Shown: piece after piece, positions 673-61,503 of the stretch | Numbering within the stretch: the first letter of the stretch is position 1 | Layout of the letters: every line of letters begins with the position of its first letter | From: Escherichia coli | Lineage (GTDB): Bacteria; Pseudomonadota; Gammaproteobacteria; Enterobacterales; Enterobacteriaceae | DNA length: 64,000 nucleotides | Strand: one strand, 5' to 3' | NCBI RefSeq assembly: GCF_013122565.1 | Contig: NZ_CP053258.1 | Position numbers and translations under genes: made by a program | The notes under the pieces: model-generated | What the model was told of the DNA's origin: nothing | Seen by the model: only the letters and a program-made list of their open reading frames with translations | Database searches by the model: none

Positions 673-1974
673 TCAGGCAGAGGTAAATTGCGGGATGTTA
701 TGCCATAACGGCCAGCTAAACGAGAAGCGGGCACCACCCAGTTCGCTGGTGTCACAATTAACCGTACCGCCCATTGCCAGTGCTATAGAGTGGACAATTG
801 CCAGCCCCAGCCCGCAGCCGCCGGTTGAGCGATCCCGGCTGGGATCGAGGCGAACAAAAGGTTCAAAGATATGTTCGCGGTTTTCTGGGGCAATCCCTGG
901 GCCATCATCCTCAACAATTAATGTCGCTCTATTCCCCGACAGTAGCAGGCTGGTTTCAACCGTTGAATGGCAGTACCGCAGGGCGTTATTGAGCAAATTA
1001 TCCAGCACGCGCTCCATTAAGCGCATATCCAACGCCGCATAATGGCCTTGCACGAGCGTTTTTATCCGTACCGTTTTATCGGGCGTTACTGCCTGAATAT
1101 CTGCTAGATGCGTTGACAGCCACAACGGCAGGTCTGGTTCGCTAAGATGAAGCTCGTTTTGTGGGCGATCGAGTCGGGCATAAGTCAGCAGCTCTTCAAT
1201 TAAAGCTTCAAGTTGACTGATATCACGATTCAACGCCTGGGATTCGGCGGCGCTCAGGTTATCGCTCATCTCCAGTCGATAACGCAGGCGCACTAACGGT
1301 GTTCGCAGTTCGTGAGCGATACCGTCAATAAGCTGTTTTTTGCTGGCAATTAAGGCGTTGATATTGTCCGCCATCTGGTTAAATGCGACGCCAAGTCGTT
1401 CAAAGCTCGAACCCTCATCAAAGTGGATACGTTCATTGAGATGCCCATCGCCAAATCGTTGCGCCGCTGCTTCCAGTTTTAACATATCCTGCCAGTGCGG
1501 ACGCATCCAGATAAACACCGGAAAGGCGAGGGAAATAGCAATAAAAGCGATCAGGGCGATATCCAGCAATCGCATCTGATGGAGATAATAAAGATAAGGA
1601 ACAGGACCAACTGCCAGCACGTAGTGGCTGCGCGGGATACGCTGCAAAAACGTGTACTGATCGTCCAGGGCGACAATTTCGCCGCCACGCAGTCGGTGCA
1701 TGGAAATATCATCAAGATGGTATTTACTCAGTGGCTCGACACGCAGATCGAAAGAGAGATTTAAATCCATCTCTTTCAGAGTCTTACCCCAGTCGTGTGG
1801 GGGGATCTCACGCAATTCGCTGCGCATCAGATACAGCGAACTGTTCATCAAATCATCCAGCGACTGTTTGCCCGCGCGTTCGGCGGTAAATTTGTACACC
1901 AGCCCAACCAGCAGAGACATCACAAGGAAGCAGACAAACAATAACAGGTAAAACTGGATAAACAGTTTTTTCAT
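673..1974 (-). CDS. rstB: Sensor histidine kinase RstB
   Basis: 433 aa ORF with two N-terminal TM segments, HAMP, H-box (HELRTPL) and HATPase motifs; adjacent to rstA. Confidence 0.9.
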   Translation of the reverse strand: MKKLFIQFYLLLFVCFLVMSLLVGLVYKFTAERAGKQSLDDLMNSSLYLMRSELREIPPHDWGKTLKEMDLNLSFDLRVEPLSKYHLDDISMHRLRGGEIVALDDQYTFLQRIPRSHYVLAVGPVPYLYYLHQMRLLDIALIAFIAISLAFPVFIWMRPHWQDMLKLEAAAQRFGDGHLNERIHFDEGSSFERLGVAFNQMADNINALIASKKQLIDGIAHELRTPLVRLRYRLEMSDNLSAAESQALNRDISQLEALIEELLTYARLDRPQNELHLSEPDLPLWLSTHLADIQAVTPDKTVRIKTLVQGHYAALDMRLMERVLDNLLNNALRYCHSTVETSLLLSGNRATLIVEDDGPGIAPENREHIFEPFVRLDPSRDRSTGGCGLGLAIVHSIALAMGGTVNCDTSELGGARFSFSWPLWHNIPQFTSA

Positions 1975-1977
1975 CGC

Positions 1978-2697
1978 TTATTCCCATGCATGGGGCGCAA
2001 AAAGATAGCCTTTGTTACGCACAGTTTTAATGCGATAAGGTTCTGCGGCGTTATCGAGCAGTTTTTTTCTTAACCGCGAAATAGCCACGTCCACGCTACG
2101 ATCCAGTCCGTCATAACTGACGCCGCGTAAATTTTTCAGCAATGCATCGCGGTCCATGATTTGCCCAGCATGGGTAGCTAATTCCCACAATAATTCGAAA
2201 TCAGCTGTCGAGAGCGAGATTTCAGTGTTAGCCAGGGTGACTACGCGGTTGATGGGATCGATGGTCAACGTGCCGAAATGCAGGGCTTTGTAGGGAGTCA
2301 GAGACGTTTCCTGAAGACCTTTGGTCAGTGTGGCTTGCTCATTCTGACGCAAATGCAAACGTAAACGCGCTAGCAAAACAGCAGGGGGCGTCGTTTTGAG
2401 AATATAGTCGCAGGCACCCATTTCCAGTGCCAGGATGTGGTTCATATCGCTATCGAGAGAGGTTAGAAGAACAATCGGTCCAGACCACTTTGCGCGTAAA
2501 TCACGACAAATGGTCATGCCGTCCTTGCCTGGTAGCATGATGTCGAGTAACACCAAATCCGGATTTTCTCGCAAAATGGTTTCTTCGGCCTGGTCGCCGC
2601 GCGGCTCTACGGTAACCTGCATATCATGTTTTGCCAGGTACGCGGCAATCAGTGAACCGACTTCCGCATCATCTTCCACAAATACGATAGTGTTCAT
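1978..2697 (-). CDS. rstA: OmpR-family response regulator RstA
   Basis: ORF track 1978..2757; likely true start MNTIVFVEDD (ATG at 2695-2697) giving 239 aa; receiver domain plus winged-helix domain. Confidence 0.9.
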   Translation of the reverse strand: MNTIVFVEDDAEVGSLIAAYLAKHDMQVTVEPRGDQAEETILRENPDLVLLDIMLPGKDGMTICRDLRAKWSGPIVLLTSLDSDMNHILALEMGACDYILKTTPPAVLLARLRLHLRQNEQATLTKGLQETSLTPYKALHFGTLTIDPINRVVTLANTEISLSTADFELLWELATHAGQIMDRDALLKNLRGVSYDGLDRSVDVAISRLRKKLLDNAAEPYRIKTVRNKGYLFAPHAWE

Positions 2698-2825
2698 AAC
2701 ATTCACGGTAGATATAAAAACGTCACAATACACCGCGCTGTTTTTACTTACTATCAATCGTTTCTAAACAAGTTTTCATCAGGTATTCTACTGATGACTT
2801 GTTATGGAAGTGTTAAGGTAAAAAG

Positions 2826-3161
2826 ATGGGGCTGGTAATCAAAGCCGCGCTCGGTGCGCTGGTAGTGCTGTTGATTGGTGTTTTAGCAAAAACGAAAAAT
2901 TATTATATCGCCGGGCTGATTCCACTTTTCCCGACCTTTGCGCTTATCGCGCATTATATTGTTGCCAGCGAACGCGGCATTGAAGCCTTACGCGCAACCA
3001 TCATTTTTAGTATGTGGTCGATTATTCCCTATTTTGTTTACCTGGTGTCGCTGTGGTATTTCACCGGAATGATGCGCTTGCCCGCCGCTTTTGTTGGTTC
3101 TGTTGCGTGTTGGGGGATAAGCGCATGGGTGTTGATTATATGCTGGATAAAGCTGCATTAA
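2826..3161 (+). CDS. ydgC: GlpM-family small inner membrane protein
   Basis: 111 aa hydrophobic ORF; position between rstA and folM as in K-12. Confidence 0.8.
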   Translation: MGLVIKAALGALVVLLIGVLAKTKNYYIAGLIPLFPTFALIAHYIVASERGIEALRATIIFSMWSIIPYFVYLVSLWYFTGMMRLPAAFVGSVACWGISAWVLIICWIKLH

Positions 3162-3880
3162 CGCAGATGACGACCGCCATCAAGTGGGAAACTGCGTCCG
3201 GTGACAAAGCAACTGGTAAGTAAGTAATCGACCAGGTCGATCACTTCTTTCTCGCCAGGCGCGGTTTTCATCAGTGATTTATTCAGCGCCTGTTGTCGAT
3301 ATTCGGCATCATCATGTTCATTAAACAGGATCAGCGATGGCGCAATAGAATTCACTTTCACTTCCGGTGCCAGCTTGCGGGCAAACGAGCGGGTCATATT
3401 ATCCAGTGCCGCTTTGCTTGCAGCATACGCAATATGTTTGTCGCTACCGCGCTCCACCACATAATCGGTAAAGTGAATGATATCGCTGGCGGCGTGTCCG
3501 TGCCCACGCAGTAATCTTTCCAGCGCATGGTTGAGCAGGTATGGGGTATTAACGTGGATCTGCATCATGCAAGCCAGTACGTCGGCCAGTGGCGCACCCG
3601 GTTTTTCCGCCATCCACGCACTGGCGTTATGCAAAATAGCACGCAGACCATGGGTGCTTTTTAGTACTTCGTCGGCAAACGCCATCACACCGTCGTTGGT
3701 CGAAAAATCAGCCTGAATACACTGCGCACCTGCATTAATCAGTCCATCAATGGCTGGATAGTGCGTCCGATAGCTGACAATCACCGGTTGCTTTTGATTA
3801 ATGAAATGCCATGCGAGGGCGAGGCCGATGCGACGACCACCGCCAGTAATTAATATTGGCAAGGGCTGGGCTTTACCCAT
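3158..3880 (-). CDS. folM: Dihydromonapterin/dihydrofolate reductase FolM (SDR family)
   Basis: 240 aa ORF with N-terminal ITGGGRRIG Rossmann motif and YAASKAAL SDR active site. Confidence 0.85.
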   Translation of the reverse strand: MGKAQPLPILITGGGRRIGLALAWHFINQKQPVIVSYRTHYPAIDGLINAGAQCIQADFSTNDGVMAFADEVLKSTHGLRAILHNASAWMAEKPGAPLADVLACMMQIHVNTPYLLNHALERLLRGHGHAASDIIHFTDYVVERGSDKHIAYAASKAALDNMTRSFARKLAPEVKVNSIAPSLILFNEHDDAEYRQQALNKSLMKTAPGEKEVIDLVDYLLTSCFVTGRSFPLDGGRHLR

Positions 3881-3916
3881 CGTTATCTCCTTTGCTATCC
3901 AACGATGGGATGAACG

Positions 3917-5299
3917 TTATCCCACCAGCATCCAGGTCGCCGGAACTGAGGCAATTAACAGCATGCCAATCAGCACCATTTCCTGACGGTTCAGTACATT
4001 ATCATGGGTATGCGTTTTACGCGCGTACAGGAAAACCAGCAGCCCCGGTGCATACAGAACAACGGATAACAGCAAGTGCATTGGACCAGAGGCGTACAAT
4101 AACCATAAGCCATAAATGCAGGCACCGACACCTACCGCTTTATGCAGTGGACGGGTTGCGATTTTCAGCAAGAACGCGCCGACCAGGAAATAGGGCACCA
4201 GAATCATTTCTGAGGCGATGGTCAGCAACGTGTTGTAATCGGAACCGGTCAGCCAGATGAGTACCAGACAAATTTGCACGCAGATGTTAGTCAACCACAG
4301 TGAGGCGGATGGCGCAGCTTGTGCGTTCTGGCGCGCAAAAATGCGCGGGAATGCTTTATGAGTGGCGGCCAGGAACGGAACTTCTGCCGCCATGATGGTC
4401 CAGCTTAAGTACGCGCCGCAAACGGAAACGATCAAACCGGCAGCGATGATGATTTCGCCCCACGGTCCCATCATTTCCACCATCAGACCGGCCATTGACG
4501 GGTTACGAATTTCAGCCAGTTCAGGACGTGCCACCACACCCAGCGAAAGCAGCGTTACCAGCAAGTAAACGCCCAGAGCGGAGAGAACCGCCAGCAGTGT
4601 CGCTTTGCCAACATCACGTTTATTACGCGCACGCGCAGAAACAACCACGGCACCTTCCACACCAATGAAAACCCACAGGGTGATCAGCATGGTGTTTTTC
4701 ACCTGTTCCCACACGGGGACGCCAAGTGCAAGTCCGGTGAAGTCGAGCTTGAAGGTATCCAGTTTGAACATCATCATAGCCAGCACAACAAACAGACCCA
4801 GCGGCAACAATTTTGCCAGTGTCGCCACCAGGTTAATGCTGGCAGCGGTTTGCACCCCGCGCAGGATCAAAAAGTGAACAATCCACAATAAAGCCGATGC
4901 ACCGACGATCGATTGCCAGGTATTACCATCGCCAAACAGGCGCAATTCCGGCGTGTCCGTAAAAAAGCTTAACGCGGAAAAAACGATTACCAGATAGGAG
5001 ACGTTGGCGATGACTGCGCACAGCCAGTATCCCCATGCGGAACAAAAGCCGATTAGCTCGCCAAACCCTTCGCGGGCATAGGTAAAGATACCGCCGTCAA
5101 GTTCGGGACGAATGCGCGTGAGGATCAGCATGGCAAAGGCCAGTAATAAAATACCAGCGCCAGTGATACCCCAGCCGATGAGCAGTGCTGCCGGGCTGGC
5201 AACTGCCGCCATATTTTGCGGCAGACTGAAAACACCCGCGCCCAGCATTGAGCTTAATACCAGCGCGGTGAGTGCGCTCAGTCCCAGTTTCTTTTCCAT
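3917..5299 (-). CDS. ydgI: Putative arginine/ornithine antiporter (ArcD-like, APC family)
   Basis: 460 aa polytopic membrane ORF; recalled match to E. coli YdgI. Confidence 0.85.
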   Translation of the reverse strand: MEKKLGLSALTALVLSSMLGAGVFSLPQNMAAVASPAALLIGWGITGAGILLLAFAMLILTRIRPELDGGIFTYAREGFGELIGFCSAWGYWLCAVIANVSYLVIVFSALSFFTDTPELRLFGDGNTWQSIVGASALLWIVHFLILRGVQTAASINLVATLAKLLPLGLFVVLAMMMFKLDTFKLDFTGLALGVPVWEQVKNTMLITLWVFIGVEGAVVVSARARNKRDVGKATLLAVLSALGVYLLVTLLSLGVVARPELAEIRNPSMAGLMVEMMGPWGEIIIAAGLIVSVCGAYLSWTIMAAEVPFLAATHKAFPRIFARQNAQAAPSASLWLTNICVQICLVLIWLTGSDYNTLLTIASEMILVPYFLVGAFLLKIATRPLHKAVGVGACIYGLWLLYASGPMHLLLSVVLYAPGLLVFLYARKTHTHDNVLNRQEMVLIGMLLIASVPATWMLVG

Positions 5300-5484
5300 C
5301 GATATCCAGTGATTAAAACGTGATAAGAAGAATAAATATTAGGGCAAAACGCATAAAAATGGAGTTTGCCACTGAAGCGCGGGATTTTACGAAGAGATGT
5401 GTCTGCATGCAATGGTTGCGGGGAAATTTGTGACTAAAAATACGAAAGGCGGCATCAAGCCGCCTTATAGGAGTAACTGAATAG

Positions 5485-6429
5485 TTATTTATACAGATCT
5501 GCGCTGACGGTCAGGTTATTACCACGTTCCTGCCACTGGCGGGTGATGTGGTAATACTTAGCACCTTTCTTCGCGGCACGTTTCGCAACCTGATAGGAGA
5601 CTTCGGTCATGTTGCCGTAGTTGCCAGAGAATTTGATGCTGTCGAACGGGACCATCATCGCTGCGGTCGCTTTGTTCAGTTCTTCGACTTTAGTGCCATC
5701 CGGGAGCGTGACAGTGTAACGCCCGCCTTTTGATGACTGGGTTTCAAAGAAGCGACCAACTTCAGAACTTGGTGAAGCGGTAGTCGCAACACCCGGGATC
5801 TCAACTTTCTTCGCGGCTTCGCCACCGGCAGCCAGAGCTGCACGTCCTGCTTCGGAATCTGCCGGGATCACATCCGGGCTCTGGACGATACGTTTCTTAG
5901 CATCTTTTTTATAGATGAATGCAGTAATACGCTGGTTGCCGCCCTGGTTGGCATCGATTTGACGAACGATGTAGAAAGAGTAGGCACCTTTCGCTTTTGC
6001 CGCTTTGGTGATGGCATCATTGACTTCTGGCTGGCTACGATAGAAGCCCTGGACGGTGACCGTGTCAAACGGTTCAATCAGAACAGCCTGATCTTTCGGC
6101 AGTTCGACAACACCGTTAATTACGCGATTACTTGTTTCTTCTGCTTTTTCAGCATCGGCTTTATAGAGGTCAGCGACCACACGCCAGTTACCGCTGTTAC
6201 CAAAATCAGAAGTGTCGACAACATAAAAAGAGGCGGCACCTTCTTTATCTGCGCGACGAGAAACGGCTTTCACCGCTTCGCCAATAGCATTAAAACGACC
6301 GGTAACCACTACACGGTCAAAAGGTTTAACCGCTGCCGCTTGCTCCGGTGTCAGTTCTGTTGCTGCGTTAACGGAGAATGCCGTAGCAGAAAGCAGTGCC
6401 GACGCCAGGAGGGTGTTCTTAAGCTTCAT
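5485..6429 (-). CDS. ydgH: Periplasmic protein with repeated DUF1471 (YdgH/BhsA-type) domains
   Basis: 314 aa ORF with signal peptide (MKLKNTLLASALLSATAFSVNA) and three internal repeats. Confidence 0.8.
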   Translation of the reverse strand: MKLKNTLLASALLSATAFSVNAATELTPEQAAAVKPFDRVVVTGRFNAIGEAVKAVSRRADKEGAASFYVVDTSDFGNSGNWRVVADLYKADAEKAEETSNRVINGVVELPKDQAVLIEPFDTVTVQGFYRSQPEVNDAITKAAKAKGAYSFYIVRQIDANQGGNQRITAFIYKKDAKKRIVQSPDVIPADSEAGRAALAAGGEAAKKVEIPGVATTASPSSEVGRFFETQSSKGGRYTVTLPDGTKVEELNKATAAMMVPFDSIKFSGNYGNMTEVSYQVAKRAAKKGAKYYHITRQWQERGNNLTVSADLYK

Positions 6430-6889
6430 AAAAATAATCCTTCGCCTTGCGCAAACCAGGTACTGGTATTGTTATTAACGAGAAACGTGGCTGATTATTG
6501 CATTTAAACGGTGTAACTGTCTGCGTCATTTTTCATATCACATTCCTTAAGCCAATTTTAATCCTGCTCAAATGACCGTCTATGCTTAAAAAACAGCCGC
6601 ATCAGCATCAATACTACTGAAGCAACTGAATTGTATAAGTTAATTTAATGTTAAGTAGTGATTCGTGCCGGGGCGATGTCTCGTTTTACCTGACCGTCGA
6701 AGACAATTATCAGTCTTTATCCGGCGTTCTAAGGTATTTATCCCACTATCACGGCTGAATCGTTAATATTTTGCGAGTTCACGCCGAAATACTGATTTTT
6801 GGCGCTAGATCACAGGCATAATTTTCAGTACGTTATAGGGCGTTTGTTACTAATTTATTTTAACGGAGTAACATTTAGCTCGTACATGA

Positions 6890-8485
<1,596 letters not shown>

Positions 8486-8492
8486 GGGGTAA

Positions 8493-9884
<1,392 letters not shown>

Positions 9885-9888
9885 CCCT

Positions 9889-9920
9889 GACGGCCTCTGC
9901 GGAGGCCGTCACTCTTTATT
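9889..9920. terminator. Stem-loop between convergent pntB and tqsA (possible bidirectional terminator)
   Basis: GACGGCCTC-TGCG-GAGGCCGTC perfect 9 bp stem followed by T-rich tract. Confidence 0.5.
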
Positions 9921-10857
9921 GAGATCGCTTAACAGAACGGCGATGCTTTGACCTCCCGCTGTTTGTTCAAGCGCAATTTTGACAATAATTGTTAACGGCA
10001 CGGAAAGCAGCATACCCACCGGTCCTAACAACCATCCCCAAAAAATCAACGACAAAAATACCACCAATGTGGAAAGTCCCAGCCCACGCCCCATGATGCG
10101 TGGCTCCAGAATATTGCCGAAGACCAGATTAATCAGCAGATATCCCGCCAGCACCAACAACGCTTCGTAGAAGCCATTAAACACCAGTACCTGAGCGATA
10201 ATCGAGGGCGGCGAGCATCGCCCATGCGACCAGGCCGGTGATGATGCTGATGGCTGTTTTCAGCACCAGATAATGAGACACACTGTCAATCGCACGCTGA
10301 ATCGCCGCCATCCCTTCAACCGGACGCGCCATCATTTGCTGAAATTTTCCGGGCAATTGTGGCACTTCGAGCAGCATAAACAGCACCGTCAGCAGCAATA
10401 AAAATATTGATGACATGGCATTAGATAACTGCGTCAATAAGTTGGTGAGCAACGTCATCGCCGCGTTCGGATCAATGTAATGCGCCAGTTGGTCAACTGA
10501 GACGTCAATCCCTACGCGTTGCAACAACGGCTCAAGAGCTTGCAGCGGCGTCATAATAGAGTTGCGATATTGCGGTAACGTCCGCGTCAACTCGTTGAGC
10601 GCGGAACCCAGATAAGCTAACAGCAACACCATAGCCATCACGATGATGGTCATCAAAATCGACACCGCCAGTACACGCGGCACTCGCCAGCGGACCATGT
10701 GTTGCACCAGCGGGTTAAGAATAACAGCAATAAATAATGCGAGAATAAACGGCACGATGATCTCGGCGGCAAAACGGATACCGCAGAGAATAATGACCAG
10801 CATTCCCAACATAATGACGATTTTTAGGCCATTGAGCGTGATGATCGGCTTTGCCAT
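9909..10857 (-). pseudogene. tqsA: AI-2 exporter TqsA (AI-2E/PerM family) interrupted by frameshift or internal deletion
   Basis: Two collinear same-strand ORFs (10177..10857, 226 aa, and 9909..10184, 91 aa) correspond to N- and C-terminal parts of one transporter; frames switch near 10180-10215. Confidence 0.7.
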
Positions 10858-11268
10858 GCTTGTCCCCGTTTTTTCTTCCTTGGCTAATAATAATGTCTTT
10901 TTCGCTCCGTCATCATAACGAAAATCAAACCGCTCAGGTAAAGAAGTGAAAATATTTTGAGTTAATTCTTAAGCTATGATACAAATCAGGCGTGTTCAAC
11001 TACCGAGGACAATTATCATCCGCGATGACGAGAAGCAACACTGCGGATAATTGTAATATTATGGACAATTTGTTCAGGACGTTATTTTCTACATTTACCC
11101 ATCTTCGTACCTCATCCACTATCTTGCTCGTAGGTGAGCAGCACTGGCGCAACGCGCTTTAGTCCTTTCTTCTGCCAAAGCTTGCGCTAAGCGCGGGGCT
11201 TGACCACTTTACTTTGGTTTCGCTGAATTAAGCGAAAATTAAAATAATTCTCTTGCAGGAGAAGGACA

Positions 11269-11634
11269 ATGTATATTTATTGGATTTTATTAGGTCTGGC
11301 TATTGCTACAGAAATTACCGGTACGCTGTCCATGAAATGGGCGAGCGTCAGTGAGGGAAATGGCGGCTTTATTTTAATGCTGGTGATGATTTCTCTGTCG
11401 TATATATTTCTCTCTTTCGCCGTTAAAAAAATCGCCTTAGGCGTAGCTTATGCGCTGTGGGAAGGTATCGGTATTTTATTTATTACCTTGTTTAGCGTTT
11501 TGTTATTCGACGAAAGTTTATCGCTGATGAAAATTGCCGGGTTAACCACCCTGGTCGCCGGGATTGTGTTGATAAAATCAGGTACCCGTAAAGCGCGTAA
11601 ACCTGAACTGGAGGTGAACCATGGCGCAGTTTGA
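11269..11634 (+). CDS. mdtJ: Spermidine export protein MdtJ (SMR family)
   Basis: 121 aa four-TM ORF; overlaps mdtI start. Confidence 0.9.
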
Positions 11635-11950
11635 ATGGGTTCACGCCGCCTGGCTGGCATTGGCAATCGTGCTGGAAATCGTTGCTAACGTCTTTTTGAA
11701 ATTTTCTGACGGCTTTCGTCGCAAAATATTTGGCTTGCTCTCCCTGGCGGCGGTGCTGGCTGCCTTTAGTGCGCTTTCTCAGGCCGTTAAAGGGATCGAC
11801 TTGTCTGTCGCTTATGCATTGTGGGGCGGGTTTGGTATTGCCGCCACGTTAGCCGCAGGTTGGATCTTGTTTGGTCAACGGTTAAATCGTAAAGGCTGGA
11901 TTGGCCTGATCTTGCTGTTGGCTGGAATGATCATGGTGAAACTTGCCTGA
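11621..11950 (+). CDS. mdtI: Spermidine export protein MdtI (SMR family)
   Basis: 109 aa ORF overlapping mdtJ 3' end, consistent with translational coupling. Confidence 0.9.
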
Positions 11951-11988
11951 TGAACACGCTGCCCGCGCTGTCGGGCAGCGTTTGAACA

Positions 11989-12810
11989 TTATTTTTGCGA
12001 CAGTTGATCCAGCCTGTCGCGAAAACCGGTAACAGAAATGGCCCGGTTATCGGCGCGCCAGCGATCTTTCGCGGCAGGAGCCGAACTTTGCACCCCAATT
12101 AATTGCCAGCCGTCATCGGTATGCAACATCAGAGGCGAACCGCTGTCACCCGGCAAGGTATCGCACTGATGTGACATCACCGACGTTTGCGCCCAGCCAG
12201 TCACTTCACAGTTTTGATGACTGTACAACGTATCGAGATGATCTTCAGGGTATCCCGCCTGAGTTACTTTACGGCCAGCCGATTTTAATGCGGCGGTAAG
12301 CGCGGCTTTATCTCCCTCAAATAACGGCAACGGTGTAATGCCAGAAGGGGGATTACGTAGCACAATCAATCCGAAGTCCCACGGTGCAGCTGCGGGAGGT
12401 ACAATCCAACCATCCCCATCTGCTTTTAACCGCTTTCCCAGTGTCGGATCAACGCGGCCTTCTATGTCGTGGATCTCATAGCGCCAAAGACCTTTATTTG
12501 ACACAAAACGCAGCGCTACCGCCTTATCCGCTTTACCCTTTGGAGGTGTCAATAAACAGTGTCCTGCCGTTAATGCCAGATTGGGTGCAATCAGCGTCGC
12601 CGTACATAAATTGCCGCTGGCCGTTTCCAGTTGCCCAACCGCATCCCACGGTGATTGGGTCGTGTCATTCACTGGCACACGATCATCATGACCAAAAAAC
12701 AGGGTGCTGATCTCATCGTTTGCCGATTTGGCAACGTCTGGTTTATCTGCAAACACAAAAGCAGACGTCAAACTAATTGCACCCAACACTACAGCAATGG
12801 TTGTACGCAT
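11989..12810 (-). CDS. ydgD: Secreted trypsin-like serine peptidase (S1 family)
   Basis: 273 aa ORF with signal peptide, TAGHC histidine motif and GDSGSP serine motif. Confidence 0.8.
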
Positions 12811-12909
12811 ATCACACTCTGGTGGGTAATTATGATTATTAAAAGCAAACCCTCATAAATACTATAGACGGGACGGGATGAAAGTGGGAGTAAAATCAGA
12901 TAACTACGA

Positions 12910-12993
12910 TCAGGAAAGATAAAAACGGGCGGCAATCAGTGCGCATAAAATAAGGATGATAAGAATGAACTCAAAGCGATAACGGCCCACCAT
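12910..12993 (-). CDS. ydgU: Small hydrophobic protein YdgU (27 aa)
   Basis: Manual translation MVGRYRFEFILIILILCALIAARFYLS; too short for ORF track. Confidence 0.6.
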   Translation of the reverse strand: MVGRYRFEFILIILILCALIAARFYLS

Positions 12994-13085
12994 ACTACCC
13001 TCCGCTAAAGGCGGTGCTAAACGTTACCCGCTTAGCACCGTAATTTTCAGGCGCGAGGGGGCGCGCCAGCATTACTGTTGAAAAC

Positions 13086-13394
13086 TTACGCTGCGGGTTG
13101 TGCAGCAGGTTTTGCCGGTTGCTGATGGCTGTGTTTCCCGGCGTGTTTCTTCGCTGCCTGCGCTTTTTGTTCAGGGGCTTTCTGTTCAGCTTTCGTATTT
13201 TTATGATGCTTTTTAGCCGCCTGCGCTTTCTGGGCAGGTGCTGCTTTATGCTGTTTTTTATGATGTGTAGTTTTCGCCGGCGCTGCTTTGGTGGTCGTCG
13301 CAGTCGGAGCAGGTGTGGTCGCAGTCTCTGCAGCAAAGGCGGCAGAAGACAGACCCATAGCAGCGGCAACAACCAGAGCTAATACTTTTTTCAT
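13086..13394 (-). CDS. asr: Acid shock protein Asr
   Basis: ORF track 13086..13421; canonical start [14 protein letters not shown] (signal peptide); lysine/alanine/histidine-rich repetitive periplasmic protein. Confidence 0.85.
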
Positions 13395-13817
13395 TGTCAT
13401 ACCCTCAATTTGTTTTTTCATTTAACCCCACTGCGGGGCCGTTGAAATAACTATATCCCTGGGAATGGTAGACTTCCGTGAGTGGTTGGTTTCAGCGTGT
13501 AACGATATGTACAAACGCTGAATAAATTACAGCATTGATAATAACGTATTGTGACTTAAGGAAAATTTAGCTACCAATAATAGTAGTCTTGATCGGGTTA
13601 ACTATTTTACTACTTACAAAGCGGTAGAATAACTGCGCATCAGTAATAAATGACACACAGCAAAATGAATCCGTTTATTTGGGTACTTATAATCTTGATG
13701 ACGCTAGATGCGCTGCGGGAATTGGCTGGCGCTTCGTCTATTTTAGGATGGCTATTAACGTTGGTTTGAGCAGGCAATAAGTCCGGATGGGTATTTACCG
13801 CAGTCCGGACTTATTTT

Positions 13818-15071
13818 TCAGGCGTGCAGACGACGATGCAAACGCGTCCCGACCAGCAGAGCAATGACCAGCATCAGAGCAATAAATGCGCCGACGCCGT
13901 TCCAGCCATAGTTATGCCAGAAAACACCCCCCAGCGTCCCGGCAATACTCGACCCCAGATAGTAACTGAACAGATACAGCGAGGAGGCCTGGCCTTTAGC
14001 GCGTTTTGCGCGGGGGCCGATCCAGCTGCTGGCAACGGAGTGGGCTGCGAAGAATCCGGCTGAGAAGAGTAACATTCCGGCAAAGATCAGCCACAGCGAG
14101 CTAAATAAGGTCATCAGTAAACCAAACAGCATAACTCCCGTCGAAAACAACATCACCGGACCGCGCCCATAGCGGGTGGTCATGGTTCCGGCTTTGGGTG
14201 AGCTCCATGTACCGGTCAAATAAGCCAGCGATAATAAGCCAACCACGGCCTGACTGACATGCCAGGGGGAAAGCATCAACCGATAGCCGATGTAATTAAA
14301 CAGCGTGACGAACGACCCCATCAGCAAAAAGCCTTCTGCGAACAATAACGGTAATCCCCGGTCACGCCAGTGCAGACGAAAGTTGATAAATAACGTCTTA
14401 GGGCGCAGCGAAGTCGGGCGAAAATGGCGTGATTCAGGGAGGATTTTCCAGAACATCAACGCCGAGGCCAGCGCGAAACAACCGATTGCCGCCAGAGCAA
14501 TTCGCCAGTTGAAAAAGTCCGTGAAGACACCGCTAATTAAGCGTCCGCTCATACCGCCAATTGAGTTGCCGCTGATATACAACCCCATTGAAAAGGCCAC
14601 GAAACTGGGATGGATTTCCTCGCTAAGATAAGTCATGCCAACAGCTGCCACGCCACTTAACGAAAGCCCAATCAAGGCGCGCATAATCAAAATGCCGTGC
14701 CAGCTGGTCATCATTGTCGAAAGTAACGTACAAATGGAGGCCAACAGTAGCGCCGTGACCATCACTGGTTTGCGACCAATGGCATCGGATAGGGGGCCAG
14801 TAAACAGCAAACCAATAGCCAACATCGCCGTGGAAATGGACAGTGAAATACTACTGTTCGCGGGCGTTAAGCCAAACTCCTGCGAAAGCACCGGAAGGAT
14901 AGGCTGCACACAATAGAGAAGTGCAAATGTTGCCAGTCCGGCAGAGAACAGCGCCAGGGTGACGCGCATAAATTGCGGCGTACCGCGTTTAATAAATTGA
15001 TTTGGCAGAGAAATGCTTTGCTTGTCAGTGTCGCTTGCCGGAGCGCCATCAACAGTTGTAGTACGGCTCAC
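13818..15071 (-). CDS. ynfM: MFS transporter YnfM
   Basis: 417 aa 12-TM ORF. Confidence 0.85.
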   Translation of the reverse strand: MSRTTTVDGAPASDTDKQSISLPNQFIKRGTPQFMRVTLALFSAGLATFALLYCVQPILPVLSQEFGLTPANSSISLSISTAMLAIGLLFTGPLSDAIGRKPVMVTALLLASICTLLSTMMTSWHGILIMRALIGLSLSGVAAVGMTYLSEEIHPSFVAFSMGLYISGNSIGGMSGRLISGVFTDFFNWRIALAAIGCFALASALMFWKILPESRHFRPTSLRPKTLFINFRLHWRDRGLPLLFAEGFLLMGSFVTLFNYIGYRLMLSPWHVSQAVVGLLSLAYLTGTWSSPKAGTMTTRYGRGPVMLFSTGVMLFGLLMTLFSSLWLIFAGMLLFSAGFFAAHSVASSWIGPRAKRAKGQASSLYLFSYYLGSSIAGTLGGVFWHNYGWNGVGAFIALMLVIALLVGTRLHRRLHA

Positions 15072-15177
15072 TTGAAATCCTTGCTAAATATGCCTGTGGA
15101 TCAGGCTTATACATAGGGTAGGAAAATCGAATTGTTCTGTCTAATATATTAATAATCTCAAATAAGATGTTTTAAAT

Positions 15178-16071
15178 ATGAATATTGAACTTCGTCATCT
15201 GCGTTACTTTGTTGCTGTTGCGGAAGAGCTGCATTTCGGGCGCGCCGCTGCCCGCCTGAATATTTCGCAACCGCCGCTAAGTCAGCAGATTCAGGCGCTG
15301 GAGCAACAAATTGGTGCCCGACTGCTGGCACGAACCAATCGCAGTGTATTGCTGACCGCAGCAGGAAAACAGTTTCTTGCAGATAGTCGGCAAATCCTGT
15401 CTATGGTGGATGACGCTGCCGCTCGCGCTGAAAGACTGCATCAGGGTGAAGCGGGGGAGTTGCGCATTGGTTTTACTTCGTCGGCTCCTTTTATTCGGGC
15501 GGTGTCCGATACGTTATCGCTGTTTCGCCGAGATTATCCCGATGTCCATTTACAAACCCGCGAAATGAACACTCGCGAGCAAATCGCTCCGCTCATTGAA
15601 GGAACGCTGGATATGGGATTGCTGCGTAACACAGCGTTACCGGAGACGCTTGAACACGCAGTCATCGTCCATGAACCGCTTATGGCGATGATCCCGCACG
15701 ATCATCCCCTGGCGAATAATCCGAGTGTAACACTGGCTGAACTGGCGAAAGAACCCTTTGTCTTTTTTGATCCGCACGTCGGGACAGGGCTGTATGACGA
15801 TATTCTCGGACTGATGCGACGTTACCATTTGACGCCCGTCATCACTCAGGAGGTGGGCGAGGCGATGACCATCATCGGTCTGGTTTCCGCCGGTCTGGGT
15901 GTTTCAATTTTGCCTGCGTCATTTAAACGTGTTCAGCTCAACGAAATGCGCTGGGTGCCGATTGCTGAAGAGGATGCGGTTTCTGAAATGTGGTTGGTCT
16001 GGCCGAAACATCATGAACAAAGTCCGGCTGCGCGTAACTTTCGTATTCATCTGCTGAATGCTCTCAGGTGA
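15178..16071 (+). CDS. ynfL: LysR-family transcriptional regulator
   Basis: 297 aa; N-terminal HTH (LRYFVAVAEELHFGRAA); divergent from ynfM. Confidence 0.85.
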   Translation: MNIELRHLRYFVAVAEELHFGRAAARLNISQPPLSQQIQALEQQIGARLLARTNRSVLLTAAGKQFLADSRQILSMVDDAAARAERLHQGEAGELRIGFTSSAPFIRAVSDTLSLFRRDYPDVHLQTREMNTREQIAPLIEGTLDMGLLRNTALPETLEHAVIVHEPLMAMIPHDHPLANNPSVTLAELAKEPFVFFDPHVGTGLYDDILGLMRRYHLTPVITQEVGEAMTIIGLVSAGLGVSILPASFKRVQLNEMRWVPIAEEDAVSEMWLVWPKHHEQSPAARNFRIHLLNALR

Positions 16072-16205
16072 GGGAAATTTCAGCGAAAAAGCCCGAAAAA
16101 TGTGCTGTTAATCACATGCCTAAGTAAAAATTTGACGACACGTATTGAAGTGCTTCACCATAGCCTACAGATTATTTCGGAGCGCGAAAATATAGGGAGT
16201 ATGCG

Positions 16206-17426
16206 GTGGTTGCTGAAAACCAGCCTGGGCACATTGATCAAATAAAGCAGACCAACGCGGGCGCGGTTTATCGCCTGATTGATCAGCTTGGTCCAGTCTC
16301 GCGTATCGATCTTTCCCGTCTGGCGCAGCTGGCTCCTGCCAGTATCACTAAAATTGTCCGTGAGATGCTCGAAGCACACCTGGTGCAAGAGCTGGAAATC
16401 AAAGAAGCGGGGAACCGTGGCCGTCCGGCGGTGGGGCTGGTGGTTGAAACTGAAGCCTGGCACTATCTTTCTCTGCGCATTAGTCGCGGGGAGATTTTCC
16501 TTGCTCTGCGCGATCTGAGCAGCAAACTGGTGGTGGAAGAGTCGCAGGAACTGGCGTTAAAAGATGACTCGCCATTGCTGGATCGTATCATTTCCCATAT
16601 CGATCAGTTTTTTATCCGCCACCAGAAAAAACTTGAGCGTCTAACTTCGATTGCCATAACCCTGCCGGGAATTATTGATACGGAAAATGGCATTGTACAT
16701 CGCATGCCGTTCTACGAGGATGTAAAAGAGATGCCGCTCGGCGAGGCTCTGGAGCAGCATACCGGCGTTCCGGTTTATATTCAGCATGATATCAGCGCAT
16801 GGACGATGGCAGAGGCCTTGTTTGGTGCCTCACGCGGGGCGCGCGATGTGATTCAGGTGGTTATCGATCACAACGTGGGGGCGGGCGTCATTACCGATGG
16901 TCATCTGCTACACGCAGGCAGCAGTAGTCTCGTGGAAATAGGCCACACACAGGTCGACCCGTATGGGAAACGTTGTTATTGCGGGAATCACGGCTGCCTC
17001 GAAACCATCGCCAGTGTGGACAGTATTCTTGAGCTGGCACAGCTGCGTCTCAATCAATCCATGAGCTCGATGTTGCATGGACAACCGTTAACCGTGGACT
17101 CATTGTGTCAGGCGGCATTGCGCGGCGATCTACTGGCAAAAGACATCATTACCGGGGTGGGCGCGCATGTGGGGCGCATTCTTGCCATCATGGTGAATTT
17201 ATTTAACCCACAAAAAATACTGATTGGCTCACCGTTAAGTAAAGCGGCAGATATCCTCTTCCCGGTCATCTCAGACAGCATCCGTCAGCAGGCCCTTCCT
17301 GCGTATAGTCAGCACATTAGCGTTGAGAGTACTCAGTTTTCTAACCAGGGCACGATGGCAGGGGCTGCGCTGGTAAAAGACGCGATGTATAACGGTTCTT
17401 TGTTGATTCGTCTGTTGCAGGGTTAA
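16206..17426 (+). CDS. mlc: ROK-family global regulator Mlc (DgsA)
   Basis: 406 aa ORF with GTG start; translation MVAENQPGHIDQIKQTNAGAVYRLI matches Mlc. Confidence 0.92.
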   Translation: MVAENQPGHIDQIKQTNAGAVYRLIDQLGPVSRIDLSRLAQLAPASITKIVREMLEAHLVQELEIKEAGNRGRPAVGLVVETEAWHYLSLRISRGEIFLALRDLSSKLVVEESQELALKDDSPLLDRIISHIDQFFIRHQKKLERLTSIAITLPGIIDTENGIVHRMPFYEDVKEMPLGEALEQHTGVPVYIQHDISAWTMAEALFGASRGARDVIQVVIDHNVGAGVITDGHLLHAGSSSLVEIGHTQVDPYGKRCYCGNHGCLETIASVDSILELAQLRLNQSMSSMLHGQPLTVDSLCQAALRGDLLAKDIITGVGAHVGRILAIMVNLFNPQKILIGSPLSKAADILFPVISDSIRQQALPAYSQHISVESTQFSNQGTMAGAALVKDAMYNGSLLIRLLQG

Positions 17427-29627: not shown

Positions 29628-30842
29628 ATGAAGATCGTAAAGGCTGAAGTTTTTGTTACCTGTCCGGGGCGTAATTTCGTCACATTAAAAATCACCACTG
29701 AGGACGGTATTACGGGCCTTGGGGATGCCACCCTCAATGGACGTGAGCTTTCCGTGGCCTCTTATTTGCAGGATCACCTTTGTCCGCAGCTTATTGGTCG
29801 CGATGCGCACCGTATCGAAGATATCTGGCAGTTTTTCTATAAAGGTGCTTACTGGCGTCGCGGTCCGGTTACGATGTCGGCCATTTCAGCGGTTGATATG
29901 GCGCTGTGGGATATTAAAGCCAAAGCTGCCAACATGCCGCTTTACCAGTTACTCGGCGGCGCGTCTCGTGAAGGGGTGATGGTTTATTGCCATACCACCG
30001 GTCACAGTATTGATGAAGCTCTGGATGATTATGCCCGTCATCAGGAGCTGGGATTCAAAGCCATCCGCGTGCAGTGCGGAATCCCTGGTATGAAAACCAC
30101 CTACGGCATGTCGAAAGGTAAAGGTCTGGCTTATGAACCCGCAACCAAAGGACAGTGGCCGGAAGAGCAGCTGTGGTCGACGGAGAAATACCTCGATTTC
30201 ATGCCGAAATTGTTTGACGCGGTACGTAACAAGTTTGGTTTTAATGAACATTTGCTGCATGACATGCACCATCGCTTAACGCCTATTGAAGCGGCGCGCT
30301 TTGGTAAAAGCATTGAAGATTATCGCATGTTCTGGATGGAAGACCCGACGCCTGCGGAAAACCAGGAATGCTTCCGTCTCATTCGCCAACATACCGTCAC
30401 ACCCATCGCAGTGGGTGAAGTCTTCAACAGCATCTGGGACTGCAAACAACTGATTGAAGAGCAACTCATCGATTATATCCGCACCACGCTGACCCATGCA
30501 GGCGGAATTACCGGTATGCGCCGGATTGCCGATTTTGCTTCGTTGTATCAGGTACGTACTGGCTCACACGGTCCTTCCGATTTGTCACCAGTCTGCATGG
30601 CTGCGGCGTTGCACTTTGATCTGTGGGTCCCCAATTTCGGTGTCCAGGAATACATGGGTTATTCCGAACAAATGCTCGAAGTCTTCCCGCACAACTGGAC
30701 TTTCGATAACGGCTATATGCATCCGGGAGACAAACCGGGTCTTGGTATCGAATTCGATGAAAAGCTGGCGGCGAAATATCCCTATGAACCTGCTTATCTA
30801 CCAGTCGCACGTCTGGAAGATGGCACGCTGTGGAACTGGTAA
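29628..30842 (+). CDS. rspA: Starvation-sensing protein RspA (enolase superfamily, mannonate dehydratase-like)
   Basis: ORF track 29595..30842; canonical start [22 protein letters not shown] (ATG 29628); 404 aa. Confidence 0.9.
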
Positions 30843-30853
30843 GGAGTAAGATT

Positions 30854-31873
30854 ATGAAAAGCATATTAATTGAAAAACCGAATCAACTGGCGATTGTCGA
30901 ACGTGAAATACCCACCCCGTCAGCGGGTGAAGTACGAGTAAAAGTGAAACTTGCCGGAATTTGTGGTTCAGATAGCCATATTTACCGTGGGCATAATCCT
31001 TTTGCGAAATATCCGCGCGTCATTGGTCATGAATTCTTTGGCGTCATTGATGCGGTGGGTGAAGGTGTGGAAAGCGCCAGAGTCGGTGAACGTGTTGCTG
31101 TCGATCCGGTGGTCAGCTGTGGTCATTGCTATCCGTGCTCTATAGGTAAACCGAACGTTTGTACGACACTGGCTGTATTAGGTGTGCACGCTGACGGTGG
31201 TTTCAGTGAATATGCCGTGGTTCCGGCAAAAAATGCGTGGAAAATTCCTGAAGCAGTGGCCGATCAATATGCGGTAATGATCGAACCTTTTACCATTGCG
31301 GCTAACGTAACCGGACATGGTCAACCGACTGAAAATGATACCGTTCTGGTTTATGGTGCCGGTCCAATCGGCCTGACGATCGTTCAGGTATTAAAAGGCG
31401 TCTATAACGTTAAAAATGTGATTGTTGCCGATCGCATTGATGAACGACTGGAAAAAGCGAAAGAGAGCGGGGCAGACTGGGCGATTAATAACAGCCAGAC
31501 ACCGCTTGGCGAGATTTTCGCTGCAAAAGGCATCAAGCCGACATTAATTATCGATGCGGCTTGTCATCCTTCTATCCTGAAAGAGGCCGTAACGCTGGCT
31601 TCTCCAGCGGCACGTATTGTATTGATGGGCTTCTCCAGTGAACCGTCTGAAGTGATTCAGCAAGGAATTACCGGAAAAGAACTCTCTATTTTTTCTTCAC
31701 GCTTAAATGCAAATAAATTCCCGGTCGTTATCGACTGGTTAAGTAAAGGGTTAATTAAACCAGAAAAATTAATTACCCATACGTTTGATTTCCAGCATGT
31801 TGCTGATGCCATTAGTTTATTTGAACAGGATCAAAAACATTGCTGCAAAGTCTTACTCACTTTTTCTGAATAA
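30854..31873 (+). CDS. rspB: Zn-dependent alcohol dehydrogenase-family protein RspB
   Basis: ORF track 30830..31873; start MKSILIEKPN; GICGSDSH zinc motif; 339 aa. Confidence 0.9.
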   Translation: MKSILIEKPNQLAIVEREIPTPSAGEVRVKVKLAGICGSDSHIYRGHNPFAKYPRVIGHEFFGVIDAVGEGVESARVGERVAVDPVVSCGHCYPCSIGKPNVCTTLAVLGVHADGGFSEYAVVPAKNAWKIPEAVADQYAVMIEPFTIAANVTGHGQPTENDTVLVYGAGPIGLTIVQVLKGVYNVKNVIVADRIDERLEKAKESGADWAINNSQTPLGEIFAAKGIKPTLIIDAACHPSILKEAVTLASPAARIVLMGFSSEPSEVIQQGITGKELSIFSSRLNANKFPVVIDWLSKGLIKPEKLITHTFDFQHVADAISLFEQDQKHCCKVLLTFSE

Positions 31874-31930
31874 TACCAATAACGGCGAGTAAGTAGTACG
31901 CATCTTACCTCTTTTTTAGAGATAACCATT

Positions 31931-33298
31931 ATGACAATAGAAAAACACGAAAGAAGCACTAAGGATTTGGTGAAAGCAGCAGTATCGGGATGGCTGGGCA
32001 CTGCGCTTGAATTTATGGATTTCCAGTTATATTCGCTCGGCGCAGCGTTAGTGTTTCATGAAATATTTTTTCCTGAATCATCAACGGCAATGGCGTTAAT
32101 TCTGGCAATGGGAACCTACGGTGCAGGTTATGTGGCGCGTATTGTCGGAGCATTTATTTTCGGCAAAATGGGCGACAGAATAGGGCGTAAAAAAGTGCTC
32201 TTTATTACCATCACCATGATGGGGATCTGTACCACCTTAATTGGTGTGTTACCGACCTATGCACAGATTGGTGTTTTTGCACCCATCTTGCTGGTGACGC
32301 TGCGTATTATTCAGGGGTTGGGTGCAGGTGCGGAAATTTCCGGTGCCGGTACGATGCTGGCGGAATATGCACCAAAAGGTAAGCGCGGAATTATCTCCTC
32401 ATTTGTGGCTATGGGAACTAACTGCGGAACCTTGAGCGCAACGGCAATCTGGGCCTTTATGTTCTTCATTCTCAGTAAAGAGGAACTGCTGGCGTGGGGA
32501 TGGCGTATACCGTTCCTGGCGAGTGTTGTCGTGATGGTCTTTGCTATCTGGTTGCGTATGAATCTGAAAGAAAGCCCGGTCTTTGAGAAGGTTAACGACA
32601 GCAACCAACCGACAGCAAAACCTGCACCTGCTGGTAGCATGTTCCAGAGCAAATCCTTCTGGCTGGCAACAGGGCTGCGTTTTGGTCAGGCAGGTAACTC
32701 CGGATTAATTCAGACTTTCCTTGCAGGCTATTTAGTGCAGACGTTATTGTTTAACAAAGCAATTCCAACAGATGCATTGATGATCAGTTCGATTCTCGGC
32801 TTTATGACCATTCCGTTCCTTGGTTGGTTATCCGATAAAATTGGTCGCCGGATCCCGTATATTATTATGAATACCTCCGCGATTGTGCTGGCATGGCCAA
32901 TGCTTTCTATCATCGTAGATAAAAGCTATGCCCCGAGCACCATTATGGTTGCACTGATTGTGATTCATAACTGTGCGGTGCTGGGATTATTTGCTCTGGA
33001 AAACATTACCATGGCAGAAATGTTCGGCTGTAAAAACCGCTTTACCCGGATGGCTATTTCTAAAGAAATTGGTGGTCTTATCGCTTCCGGTTTTGGTCCT
33101 ATCCTGGCGGGTATTTTCTGCACCATGACGGAATCCTGGTATCCGATCGCCATTATGATCATGGCATATTCAGTGATTGGTTTAATCTCTGCGCTGAAAA
33201 TGCCAGAAGTGAAAGACCGTGATTTAAGTGCGCTGGAAGACGCCGCGGAAGTTCAACCGCGTGTTGTAAGAGCTGCGCAACCTTCCAGAAGTCTGTAA
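31931..33298 (+). CDS. ydfJ: MFS transporter YdfJ (apparently intact)
   Basis: 455 aa 12-TM ORF beginning 57 bp after rspB stop. Confidence 0.8.
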   Translation: MTIEKHERSTKDLVKAAVSGWLGTALEFMDFQLYSLGAALVFHEIFFPESSTAMALILAMGTYGAGYVARIVGAFIFGKMGDRIGRKKVLFITITMMGICTTLIGVLPTYAQIGVFAPILLVTLRIIQGLGAGAEISGAGTMLAEYAPKGKRGIISSFVAMGTNCGTLSATAIWAFMFFILSKEELLAWGWRIPFLASVVVMVFAIWLRMNLKESPVFEKVNDSNQPTAKPAPAGSMFQSKSFWLATGLRFGQAGNSGLIQTFLAGYLVQTLLFNKAIPTDALMISSILGFMTIPFLGWLSDKIGRRIPYIIMNTSAIVLAWPMLSIIVDKSYAPSTIMVALIVIHNCAVLGLFALENITMAEMFGCKNRFTRMAISKEIGGLIASGFGPILAGIFCTMTESWYPIAIMIMAYSVIGLISALKMPEVKDRDLSALEDAAEVQPRVVRAAQPSRSL

Positions 33299-56691: not shown

Positions 56692-57450
56692 TTACTCCGT
56701 ACGGCGGGCAACAATAAAAAGACGCGGAAATGCCAGCAGTATCTGTCCGTTCTCTTGCAGTGGATACTGCTCTTCCAGCATCTGATGGTAGCGCGTAAGA
56801 AAAAGCTGCTGTTCGCTCTCGGTCAGATCCTGTAACCACGGACGTAATCCAGTGGCGGTCACCCAATCGATAATCGCCTGGTGCGACGGCATCTGGTGAT
56901 AGTAGGTGGTTCGCCAGATATCGACCTCACATCCGGCTTCGCTCAAAATATCGTAGTAAGCATGAACGCCAGCCAACGGCTCACGCCCGCGATCCGGGTA
57001 GTTTTGTTCCCAGGCAACTTCGCGCATGAGCACATGGGTCGGCTCCAGCCAGTTATCTGGCATCTGTACTGCCAGCACGCCCTGCGGATTAAGTAAAGAA
57101 ACCAAGTGAGGAAACAATTCGTAGTGGTCGGGCAGCCATTGCAGTGAGGCATTAGCAAAAATCAGATCGAGTGCCTGTTCCGGTTGCCAGTTGCGGATGT
57201 CTGCTTCCACGAACTGGCAGTCTGGCAAAGCACTGCGCGCTTCAGCAATCATCGCCGGAGACGAGTCGATGCCTGTTATCCTGGCCGCAGGCCAACGTTG
57301 ATGCAGCAGGGCGGTGCTGTTACCTGGGCCACAGCCAAGATCGGCAACGTATTTGATATTCTCCAGCGGCACTCTGGCAAGCAGCTCCACCGCCGGACGC
57401 GATCGTTCAGCGGCAAAGTGCAGATATAAAGAGGGGTTCCAGTCAGACAT
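56692..57450 (-). CDS. tam: Trans-aconitate 2-methyltransferase
   Basis: 252 aa; SAM-binding [10 protein letters not shown] motif. Confidence 0.9.
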
Positions 57451-57499: not shown

Positions 57500-59240
57500 C
57501 ATCCTCCACGCCCTGAATGACGAGGATCCTGCTACGTTCAGGCTGTCGCCTGAATCATTTCGGTGGGTTCCTGCTTCAACGGGCGGCCTGACTGCACCAT
57601 CCCTCCACAGGCAAGAACGGCGTACCCCGCCGCTAAAATGTTACGAGCGCCGTTTACATCGGCGTTCGCTGTATATCCACATACCTGGCATCTGAATTTA
57701 CTTTGTGACAGGCGATTTTCTTTCGTTGTATGACCACAGCACGCGCAACGCTGGCTTGTGTACGCTGGCGGAACAGCAAGCACCTGACCGCCACACCAGA
57801 GCTGCTTGTACTCAAGCTGGCGACGCATTTCATACCAGCCCTGATCCAGTATCGAACGGTTTAAACCTGATTTTGCCCGGACATTGCGCCCCGGCTGGCT
57901 GACCGTACCCGCTGCTGACTTTGACATGTTGCTGACCTTCAAATCCTCAATGACTATCATTGCGTGGTTTTTGCTGACGGTCGTTGTGACTTTGTGAAGG
58001 TAGTCCCTGCGGATATTTGCGATACGGGAATGCAGTCGCTGTATTTTGCGTTTCTGCTTCTGCCAGTTGTTGCTGAATTTGACCTTGCGGCTTAACTGTC
58101 GCTGAAGTCTCGCCAGCTTCTTCTGGTTTTTCTGAAAACTGTTTACAGGCTCAAAGACTGTGCCATCTGACAGCGTGGCGAGTTTAGCCACGCCAGCATC
58201 CAGCCCGATCATTGATGCTGAAGGGTGAACCGGAGTGGATACTTCACTTTCTGTCTGAATACTGATGTGCCACTTACCGCAGGACTGGCTGACCGTGACA
58301 TTTTTCACAACACCCGTGACCTGACGGCTATTCCGGTAGCGCATCCAGCCCAGTTTCGGCAGAAAAATACGGCTGTTTTCCTGATCGAGCTTAACGCCCT
58401 GCGGGTAGCGGAATGCATCATTCTGTCCCCGCTTTTTGAATCGGGGAAAAGCAGCCCGCTTCCGGAAGAAGTTTTTGTAAGCCCACTCAAGGTCTTTCAG
58501 TGACTGTTGCAATGGCTGTGACGGGGCATCTTTAAGCCATTGCGTTTCAGTGGCATTTTTCCACTCAACCAGCCAGGAAGCCATTTTCCCGTAAGGGATG
58601 TATTTATTACCGGCCTCATGATTCTCATTCTGACGTGCCAGAGCACGATTGAAAACGAAACGACATGCGCCTGCGAAGCGCCTCATTTCACGCTCCTGTT
58701 GACCACCGGGTCTTAACTGGAATTTAAATGCCTGTAGTCGTTTCACAGGTCAAATGATATTTTGGTCTGTGAAAAAAGAAACCGATATCCGGCGTGGAAG
58801 GCATTGTGTTTTCCTGAAGCATGTTCACATGGTCTTTGTCACCAAATACCGACGCCAGATTTTTGACCATGACGCGACAGAAAAACTACGCACTTACTTT
58901 TCAAATGTATGTGCTGATTTTGAAGCTGAACTGGTTGAAATGGATGGCGAACCAGATCACGTCCATTTGTTAATTAACTATCCTCCCAAACTGGCGATAT
59001 CCAGTCTGGTAAACAGCCTCAAAAGCGTATCGGGTAGGTTACTGCGACGAGATCGACCAGATATTGCAGCCAGGTATTACTACAAAGGCGTTTTGTGGAG
59101 TCCTGGCTATTTTGCCAGTAGCTGCGGAGGTACGCCAATATCCGTCATCCGCCAATACATTGAACAACAGCAAACACCTGGTCAGGTGGAAAACCACACC
59201 TTATATCCCCGCCCTGAAGGACGGGGTTTTACGGCGCACC
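57500..59240. mobile_element. IS200/IS605-family insertion sequence (IS609-like), about 1.7 kb, with tnpA and tnpB
   Basis: TnpB and Y1 TnpA ORFs fill the gap between tam and lsrG; similar imperfect palindromes near both ends (57506-57525 and 59207-59226). Ends approximate. Confidence 0.6.
57538..58746 (-). CDS. tnpB: TnpB (IS200/IS605 OrfB; RuvC-like RNA-guided endonuclease family)
   Basis: 402 aa, GTG start; RuvC-I GLDAG, RuvC-II IEDL, RuvC-III NADVNGA and CxxC...CxxC zinc finger present; starts [18 protein letters not shown] as recalled for E. coli InsQ. Confidence 0.9.
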
Positions 59241-59335
59241 GGATAAATTCGCCTCACGGCATCAACCCATTGAACAGACGCTTTTTACGCGGCCCGGTCA
59301 TTAAAGATTCCAGTTTCGCGACACAGGTTTTGTAG
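58754..59335 (+). CDS. tnpA: IS200-type Y1 (HuH) transposase TnpA; ORF as read extends past the expected C-terminus
   Basis: HVHLL HuH motif and conserved YY/GYF tyrosines; canonical proteins are about 150 aa, so the true end is probably near 59210-59240; the rest is read-through overlapping lsrG. Confidence 0.8.
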
Positions 59336-59544: not shown

Positions 59545-59567
59545 AATTCTTCTCCTTAAATCCGCAG

Positions 59568-60443: not shown

Positions 60444-60469
60444 AACTTACTCCGGTTAAGTAATGCACA

Positions 60470-61492: not shown

Positions 61493-61503
61493 GAAGATAT
61501 CCT

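Follow-up and report, generated by a model that had tools for sequence, protein, structure and literature searches.

An 86-bp internal deletion makes the AI-2 exporter gene tqsA a probable pseudogene in a natural Escherichia coli strain

The tqsA (ydgG) gene of the Escherichia coli strain represented by assembly GCF_013122565.1 has most probably been turned into a pseudogene by a genuine, recent and lineage-specific deletion of 86 bp inside its coding sequence; we put the probability of this reading at about 90%. The gene was analysed within a 64,000-nucleotide stretch of contig NZ_CP053258.1, referred to here as the window, in which the locus is composed of the following features:

9909-10857, minus strand: tqsA (ydgG) pseudogene, 949 nt versus 1035 nt for the intact gene, assigned by alignment to tqsA of E. 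coli 14EC033 and by its position between pntB and mdtJ
10177-10857, minus strand: 5' ORF of 226 aa, comprising TqsA residues 1-219 (H1-H4 and TMH5), then YRSGTGV and the stop codon TAA
9909-10184, minus strand: 3' ORF of 91 aa, comprising TqsA residues 254-344 (TMH6, HP2 and the C-terminus)
10200-10201, minus strand: deletion junction, at which window position 10201 is gene nt 657 and window position 10200 is reference nt 744
8496-9884, plus strand: pntB, the intact convergent neighbour, a 462-aa ORF annotated as pntB in syntenic genomes
11269-11950, plus strand: mdtJ/mdtI, the other neighbour; the order pntB-tqsA-mdtJI is the standard E. coli arrangement

The locus is orthologous to tqsA by both its pntB and mdtJ/mdtI flanks and its identity of up to 99.5% to annotated tqsA genes. 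A megablast search with window positions 9850-10950 against 5,426 complete E. coli genomes gave matches in 5,422 of them, with identities also reaching 99.5%. Among the full-coverage matches listed, the 1101 query bases span 1185-1187 bases of the record and are matched in two pieces, the span being 1187 bases in records with a full-length tqsA. The protein with which the allele is best compared is TqsA (YdgG; PF01594, NF008930, PDB 7NB6) of E. coli K-12, which is encoded at the same locus with the same native start and stop and is approximately 98-99.5% identical to the window allele outside the deletion, whereas the window allele is without nt 658-743 (residues 220-248) and is frameshifted thereafter.

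The alignment of the intact 1035-nt tqsA of strain 14EC033 with the window contains a single gap of 86 nt (reference nt 658-743) and two substitutions elsewhere over the 949 aligned nucleotides. Codons 220-248 are thus missing, and since 86 cannot be divided by three, the reading frame is shifted and a stop is reached seven codons past the junction. The 226-aa ORF accordingly consists of 219 native residues, up to ...AWAMLAALD, and an out-of-frame tail, window position 10201 being the last base of Asp219. The 91-aa ORF, which ends with ...SDLNKE, is read in another frame of the same strand and shares 8 nt with the first ORF; its potential start is the GTG codon of Val254, with an AGG located 5 nt upstream. 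The reading frame is therefore disrupted as expected of a pseudogene. The first-pass annotation of this DNA had described one AI-2E-family transporter split over two frames, with 219 N-terminal codons followed by 7 extra ones and with a length of 949 against 1035 bp, i.e. a loss of about 86 bp. All of these figures proved to be exact by alignment, which gave one gap and no continuous frame; tqsA is truly broken.

The exact 226-aa product was found in one contig only, Logan SRR11451224_16, among approximately 15 billion proteins (153 billion gene positions). In Logan, the de novo assembly made from SRR11451224 contains the same pair of 226-aa and 91-aa ORFs with the same junction, and its contig is identical to window positions 177-20857 (100.000% identity over 20,681 bp, no gaps). 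This contig comes from the same clone as the window, and the junction is reproduced by an independent de novo assembly, so that at the assembly level the lesion is real. An assembly error, which the first-pass annotation had wished to see excluded, would have to be present identically in this second assembly, where the frame is broken too. It is very improbable that the deletion is an artefact of assembly or sequencing and that tqsA is intact in the real genome, although the deletion is known from one clone only and, the evidence consisting of assemblies, the window and the Logan contig may derive from a single set of reads, which makes an artefact at the library level conceivable. The 86 bp that were lost are coding sequence, unique and free of repeats and thus not of the type that assemblers collapse, and typical sequencing errors are homopolymer indels of 1-2 bp. 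Moreover, over 32 kb that are collinear with the closest complete genome (strain 100181, approximately 99% identical), the tqsA deletion is the sole coding indel; the others are intergenic and 1 bp long (at about 19581, 32012, 33336 and 33363). The window assembly is thus not prone to frameshifts, which argues for a genuine deletion.

A genuine two-ORF form might also be the ancestral state, as the first-pass annotation had allowed, or a normal polymorphic or phase-variable state of the gene and not a one-off loss. The TqsA proteins of E. albertii and Escherichia sp. E2748 are 344 aa long and the same as that of E. coli over residues 220-253, and the locus is covered to at least 80% in one place in 5,171 of the 5,426 complete E. 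coli genomes. A 101-mer spanning the junction was matched in one piece by none of these 5,426 genomes, in which it aligned only as two pieces over a span of 187 bp, and an exact scan of metagenome contigs with a 36-mer across the junction gave no match. The junction k-mer of the 86-bp deletion is GCCGCCCTCGATTATCGCTCAGG. The ancestral version is refuted by the full-length outgroups; essentially all complete E. coli genomes carry the intact, 344-aa form as well. A polymorphic state could be suggested by the other lesions of tqsA that occur in E. coli (a ∆T frameshift, satellite insertions and a larger deletion, see below), but with the full-length gene in the two outgroups and in more than 5,100 complete E. 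coli genomes, and this junction in none of them, the chance that any of these versions holds is practically negligible. Phase variation is also contradicted by the nature of the lesion, because a loss of 86 bp of unique sequence cannot revert and there is no flanking repeat tract. The deletion allele is therefore derived, as the outgroups E. albertii and Escherichia sp. E2748 are intact, and it is recent, very rare and, as far as the data go, confined to one clone. The complete genomes closest to the window are only 99.0-99.1% identical to it over 25 kb; among them are 100181 (from human stool), ZF8-1 (from chicken faeces), isolates from baboons and an O157:H7 strain.

The consequences of the deletion for the protein can be judged from the solved structure of TqsA (PDB 7NB6), which matches the intact protein over residues 1-344. 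The N-terminal domain (H1-H4) carries the main pentamer contacts, and the C-terminal domain is composed of TMH5 (residues 189-218), HP1 (222-256, i.e. Phe222-Asn256), TMH6 (258-283) and HP2 (291-328); elevator-type transport was proposed as the mechanism (PMC9475539). HP1 sits between H3/H4 and TMH5/TMH6 and is part of the proposed substrate site: docking placed AI-2 between HP1, H5 and H6, with Asn234 in the docked site, and the tip of HP1 is formed by Ile236, the strictly conserved Pro237 and Asn238 (PMC9475539). Single-residue variants of HP1 had minor to mild effects on AI-2 binding in vitro, in data which their authors call preliminary (PMC9475539). The lost residues 220-248 make up most of HP1, including the Pro237 tip of the predicted AI-2 site. 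Residues 249-253 are out of frame, and TMH6 and HP2 are confined to the detached 91-aa ORF, so a transport domain with HP1 and HP2 joined to TMH5 and TMH6 is not encoded in the window tqsA.

The same picture was obtained with the NCBIfam model NF008930 (AI-2E family transporter, 344 positions). Intact TqsA matches it over positions 1-344 with 672.6 bits, whereas the window pieces match as separate ORFs, over positions 1-221 (401.7 bits) and 254-344 (179.8 bits), the 91-aa piece falling below the curated cut-off of 318 bits. No single window ORF covers the whole profile, and the full length of the AI-2E family (NF008930, Pfam PF01594) is not reached. By locus and by sequence, the gene at 9909-10857 is tqsA; having neither the full length of its family nor the complete pair of hairpins, it is a tqsA pseudogene. 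Translation from the native start would yield a 226-aa product in which no more than the N-terminal domain and TMH5 is retained. Judged from the structure, the gene is almost certainly non-functional and null for transport, and the strain most likely lacks TqsA-mediated AI-2 export.

A working exporter assembled from both pieces is extremely unlikely. Expression as two fragments, with the GTG codon as the start of the 91-aa ORF, could in principle occur: the 8-nt overlap would allow translational coupling, the GTG is preceded by the weak AGG, and the main pentamer contacts are in the retained N-terminal domain (PMC9475539). Residues 220-253, however, are present in neither piece; HP1 is gone together with its strictly conserved Pro237, and with it a part of the proposed substrate site (PMC9475539). 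Furthermore, no intact genome has such an arrangement. Loss of the exporter thus remains the preferred reading of the broken frame.

The first-pass annotation had noticed the motif CGCCCTCGAT, thought to be shared at the junction, and had proposed a deletion between short direct repeats. This proposal did not hold: in searches of intact and deleted tqsA, in which shorter versions of the motif were included, CGCCCTCGAT was single-copy, at nt 648-657 in the left flank only, and microhomology at the junction amounts to 0 bp. Only one repeat has the right spacing, the 5-bp TCGCT, found in the contexts GTTCGCT and TATCGCT, whose retained copy is positioned as follows:

10194-10198, minus strand: retained TCGCT, reference nt 746-750; its partner at nt 660-664 is deleted, the two copies are 86 bp apart, and the retained copy lies 2 nt inside the junction

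Simple slippage between the TCGCT copies predicts the sequence ...GAT-GT-TCGCT, whereas the window reads ...GAT-TA-TCGCT, the dinucleotide kept (TA) being the right-hand one. Slippage between these copies would therefore need extension from a 2-nt terminal mismatch. Among all possible tqsA deletions of 50-150 bp, approximately 1.4% have an in-register run of at least 5 nt within 8 nt of the breakpoints. The TCGCT repeat as a cause is suggestive, not demonstrative. An illegitimate or slippage-type event near the imperfect repeat GTTCGCT/TATCGCT is probably a better description than a clean direct-repeat deletion, and we infer an illegitimate deletion of uncertain mechanism.

Other natural lesions of tqsA were encountered in E. 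coli. In some strains, loss of a single T at tqsA nt 737/738 (AATTCCCCC changed to AATCCCCC) splits the gene into ORFs of 269 and 91 aa. This ∆T allele yields the same 91-aa ORF as the window, and the ORF is present on more than 1000 contigs. An 80-mer of the ∆T allele had exact matches in only 8 of the 5,416 complete genomes searched; as several of the carriers are STEC assemblies from long reads, some of the ∆T cases may be sequencing errors. The number of contigs with the 91-aa ORF was rejected as a measure of tqsA pseudogene frequency, given this low count in complete genomes, the long-read STEC carriers and the many short contigs involved. On the right, the 86-bp deletion ends at nt 743, directly against the C5 tract beside the ∆T site.

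In E. coli UTAK-23 (positions 995-16907 of its locus) and also at further tqsA loci, an element of approximately 15 kb interrupts the 5' part of the gene, at about CDS nt 128-150. It carries genes for an integrase, AlpA, a primase, an Icd-like protein, PerC, a capsid protein, a portal protein, a protease and a terminase, and by this gene content it looks like a capsid-forming phage satellite. Both tqsA halves beside the element are annotated as pseudogenes by PGAP. The megablast query was matched in 5,678 places in the 5,422 records, which corresponds to approximately 256 complete genomes (about 5%) with the locus in two places; given this proportion, the satellite insertion would be the commonest interruption of tqsA. 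Finally, in E. coli CFSAN004176 (NZ_CP014583.1, 367907-368455) a span of 549 bp accounts for only 50% of the tqsA query, from which a larger deletion of independent origin follows for the tqsA of that genome.

At least four kinds of tqsA lesion, independent of one another, were thus encountered: the 86-bp deletion, the ∆T frameshift, the 5' satellite insertion and the larger deletion. The other lesions are also loss-of-function changes but differ from the window allele in breakpoints and mechanisms, and none has the 86-bp junction. That inactivation of tqsA recurs in natural E. coli, possibly under selection and not simply by neutral decay, appears unlikely to us, although the data hint at it. 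If it were true, selection could favour AI-2 being kept inside the cell, or the gains in biofilm and motility that were reported for tqsA knockouts, and the 86-bp allele would be one case of a quorum-signal exporter being lost convergently. That components of the AI-2 system are lost naturally in E. coli is already documented, an example being phylogroup B2, which is mostly lsr-negative (PMC12263705).

The genes for AI-2 import and processing that fall within the window are located at its far end:

59254-63524, minus strand: lsrG, lsrF, lsrB, lsrD and lsrC, all full length
63521-64000, minus strand: 3' end of lsrA, 160 open codons with ABC-ATPase motifs, named from position; its 5' part lies beyond the window

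LsrF, LsrB, LsrD and LsrC gave full-length NCBIfam equivalog matches (59568-63524). The 96-aa ORF at the lsrG position (59254-59544) is taken to be lsrG from its position and its sequence. The genes lsrK, lsrR and luxS lie outside the window. The in-window part of the lsr operon is intact and 49-53 kb from tqsA, in agreement with the first-pass remark that the import operon is kept about 50 kb away.

Two further observations concern other parts of the window. An IS200/IS605-family element (57538-59335) is located between tam (56692-57450) and lsrG. Its two genes are divergent: tnpB encodes a 402-aa protein of the RNA-guided endonuclease TnpB family (382.7 bits), and tnpA an IS200 transposase (143.3 bits). 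The open frame of tnpA continues for 193 aa and, on the opposite strand, overlaps the 3' end of lsrG, which is itself full length. At 30830-33298, the next ORF directly after rspB is full length, with 455 aa, and occupies the ydfJ position. In strain 100181, a lambdoid Qin-like prophage of approximately 45 kb lies between rspB and a truncated ydfJ, so that the window has the unoccupied attachment site.

The laboratory tqsA deletion mutants of Herzberg et al. (2006), as far as they are described in PMC9475539, are the expected functional equivalent of the window allele. Unlike these mutants, the window allele is natural, is carried by a wild strain approximately 1-2% diverged from K-12 and keeps a 226-aa N-terminal fragment. 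According to the same account, intracellular AI-2, lsr expression, biofilm, motility and biomass were raised in K-12 lacking TqsA (Herzberg et al. 2006, cited in PMC9475539). By analogy with the K-12 knockout, the strain studied here would be expected to contain more intracellular AI-2 and to show higher (derepressed) lsr expression. E. coli has three AI-2E paralogs of TqsA, YhhT (46% identity), YdiK and PerM (PMC9475539); these may cover AI-2 export, and the phenotype could then be nil. The earlier suggestion that the strain may lack this particular AI-2 export route is a fair one from the structure, but to say that it cannot export AI-2 would go too far in view of the three paralogs.

The tqsA lesion is an ordinary strain-specific pseudogene of an already known kind, in a gene whose structure and knockout phenotype are known. 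A strain-specific frameshifting deletion of this sort is routine genome decay and carries little weight beyond the annotation of the strain, in which one tqsA pseudogene should be recorded at this locus and not two "AI-2 transporter" genes. For work on AI-2, biofilm or motility in the strain, behaviour like that of a tqsA mutant would be expected by analogy with K-12, in combination with Lsr uptake genes that are intact within the window.
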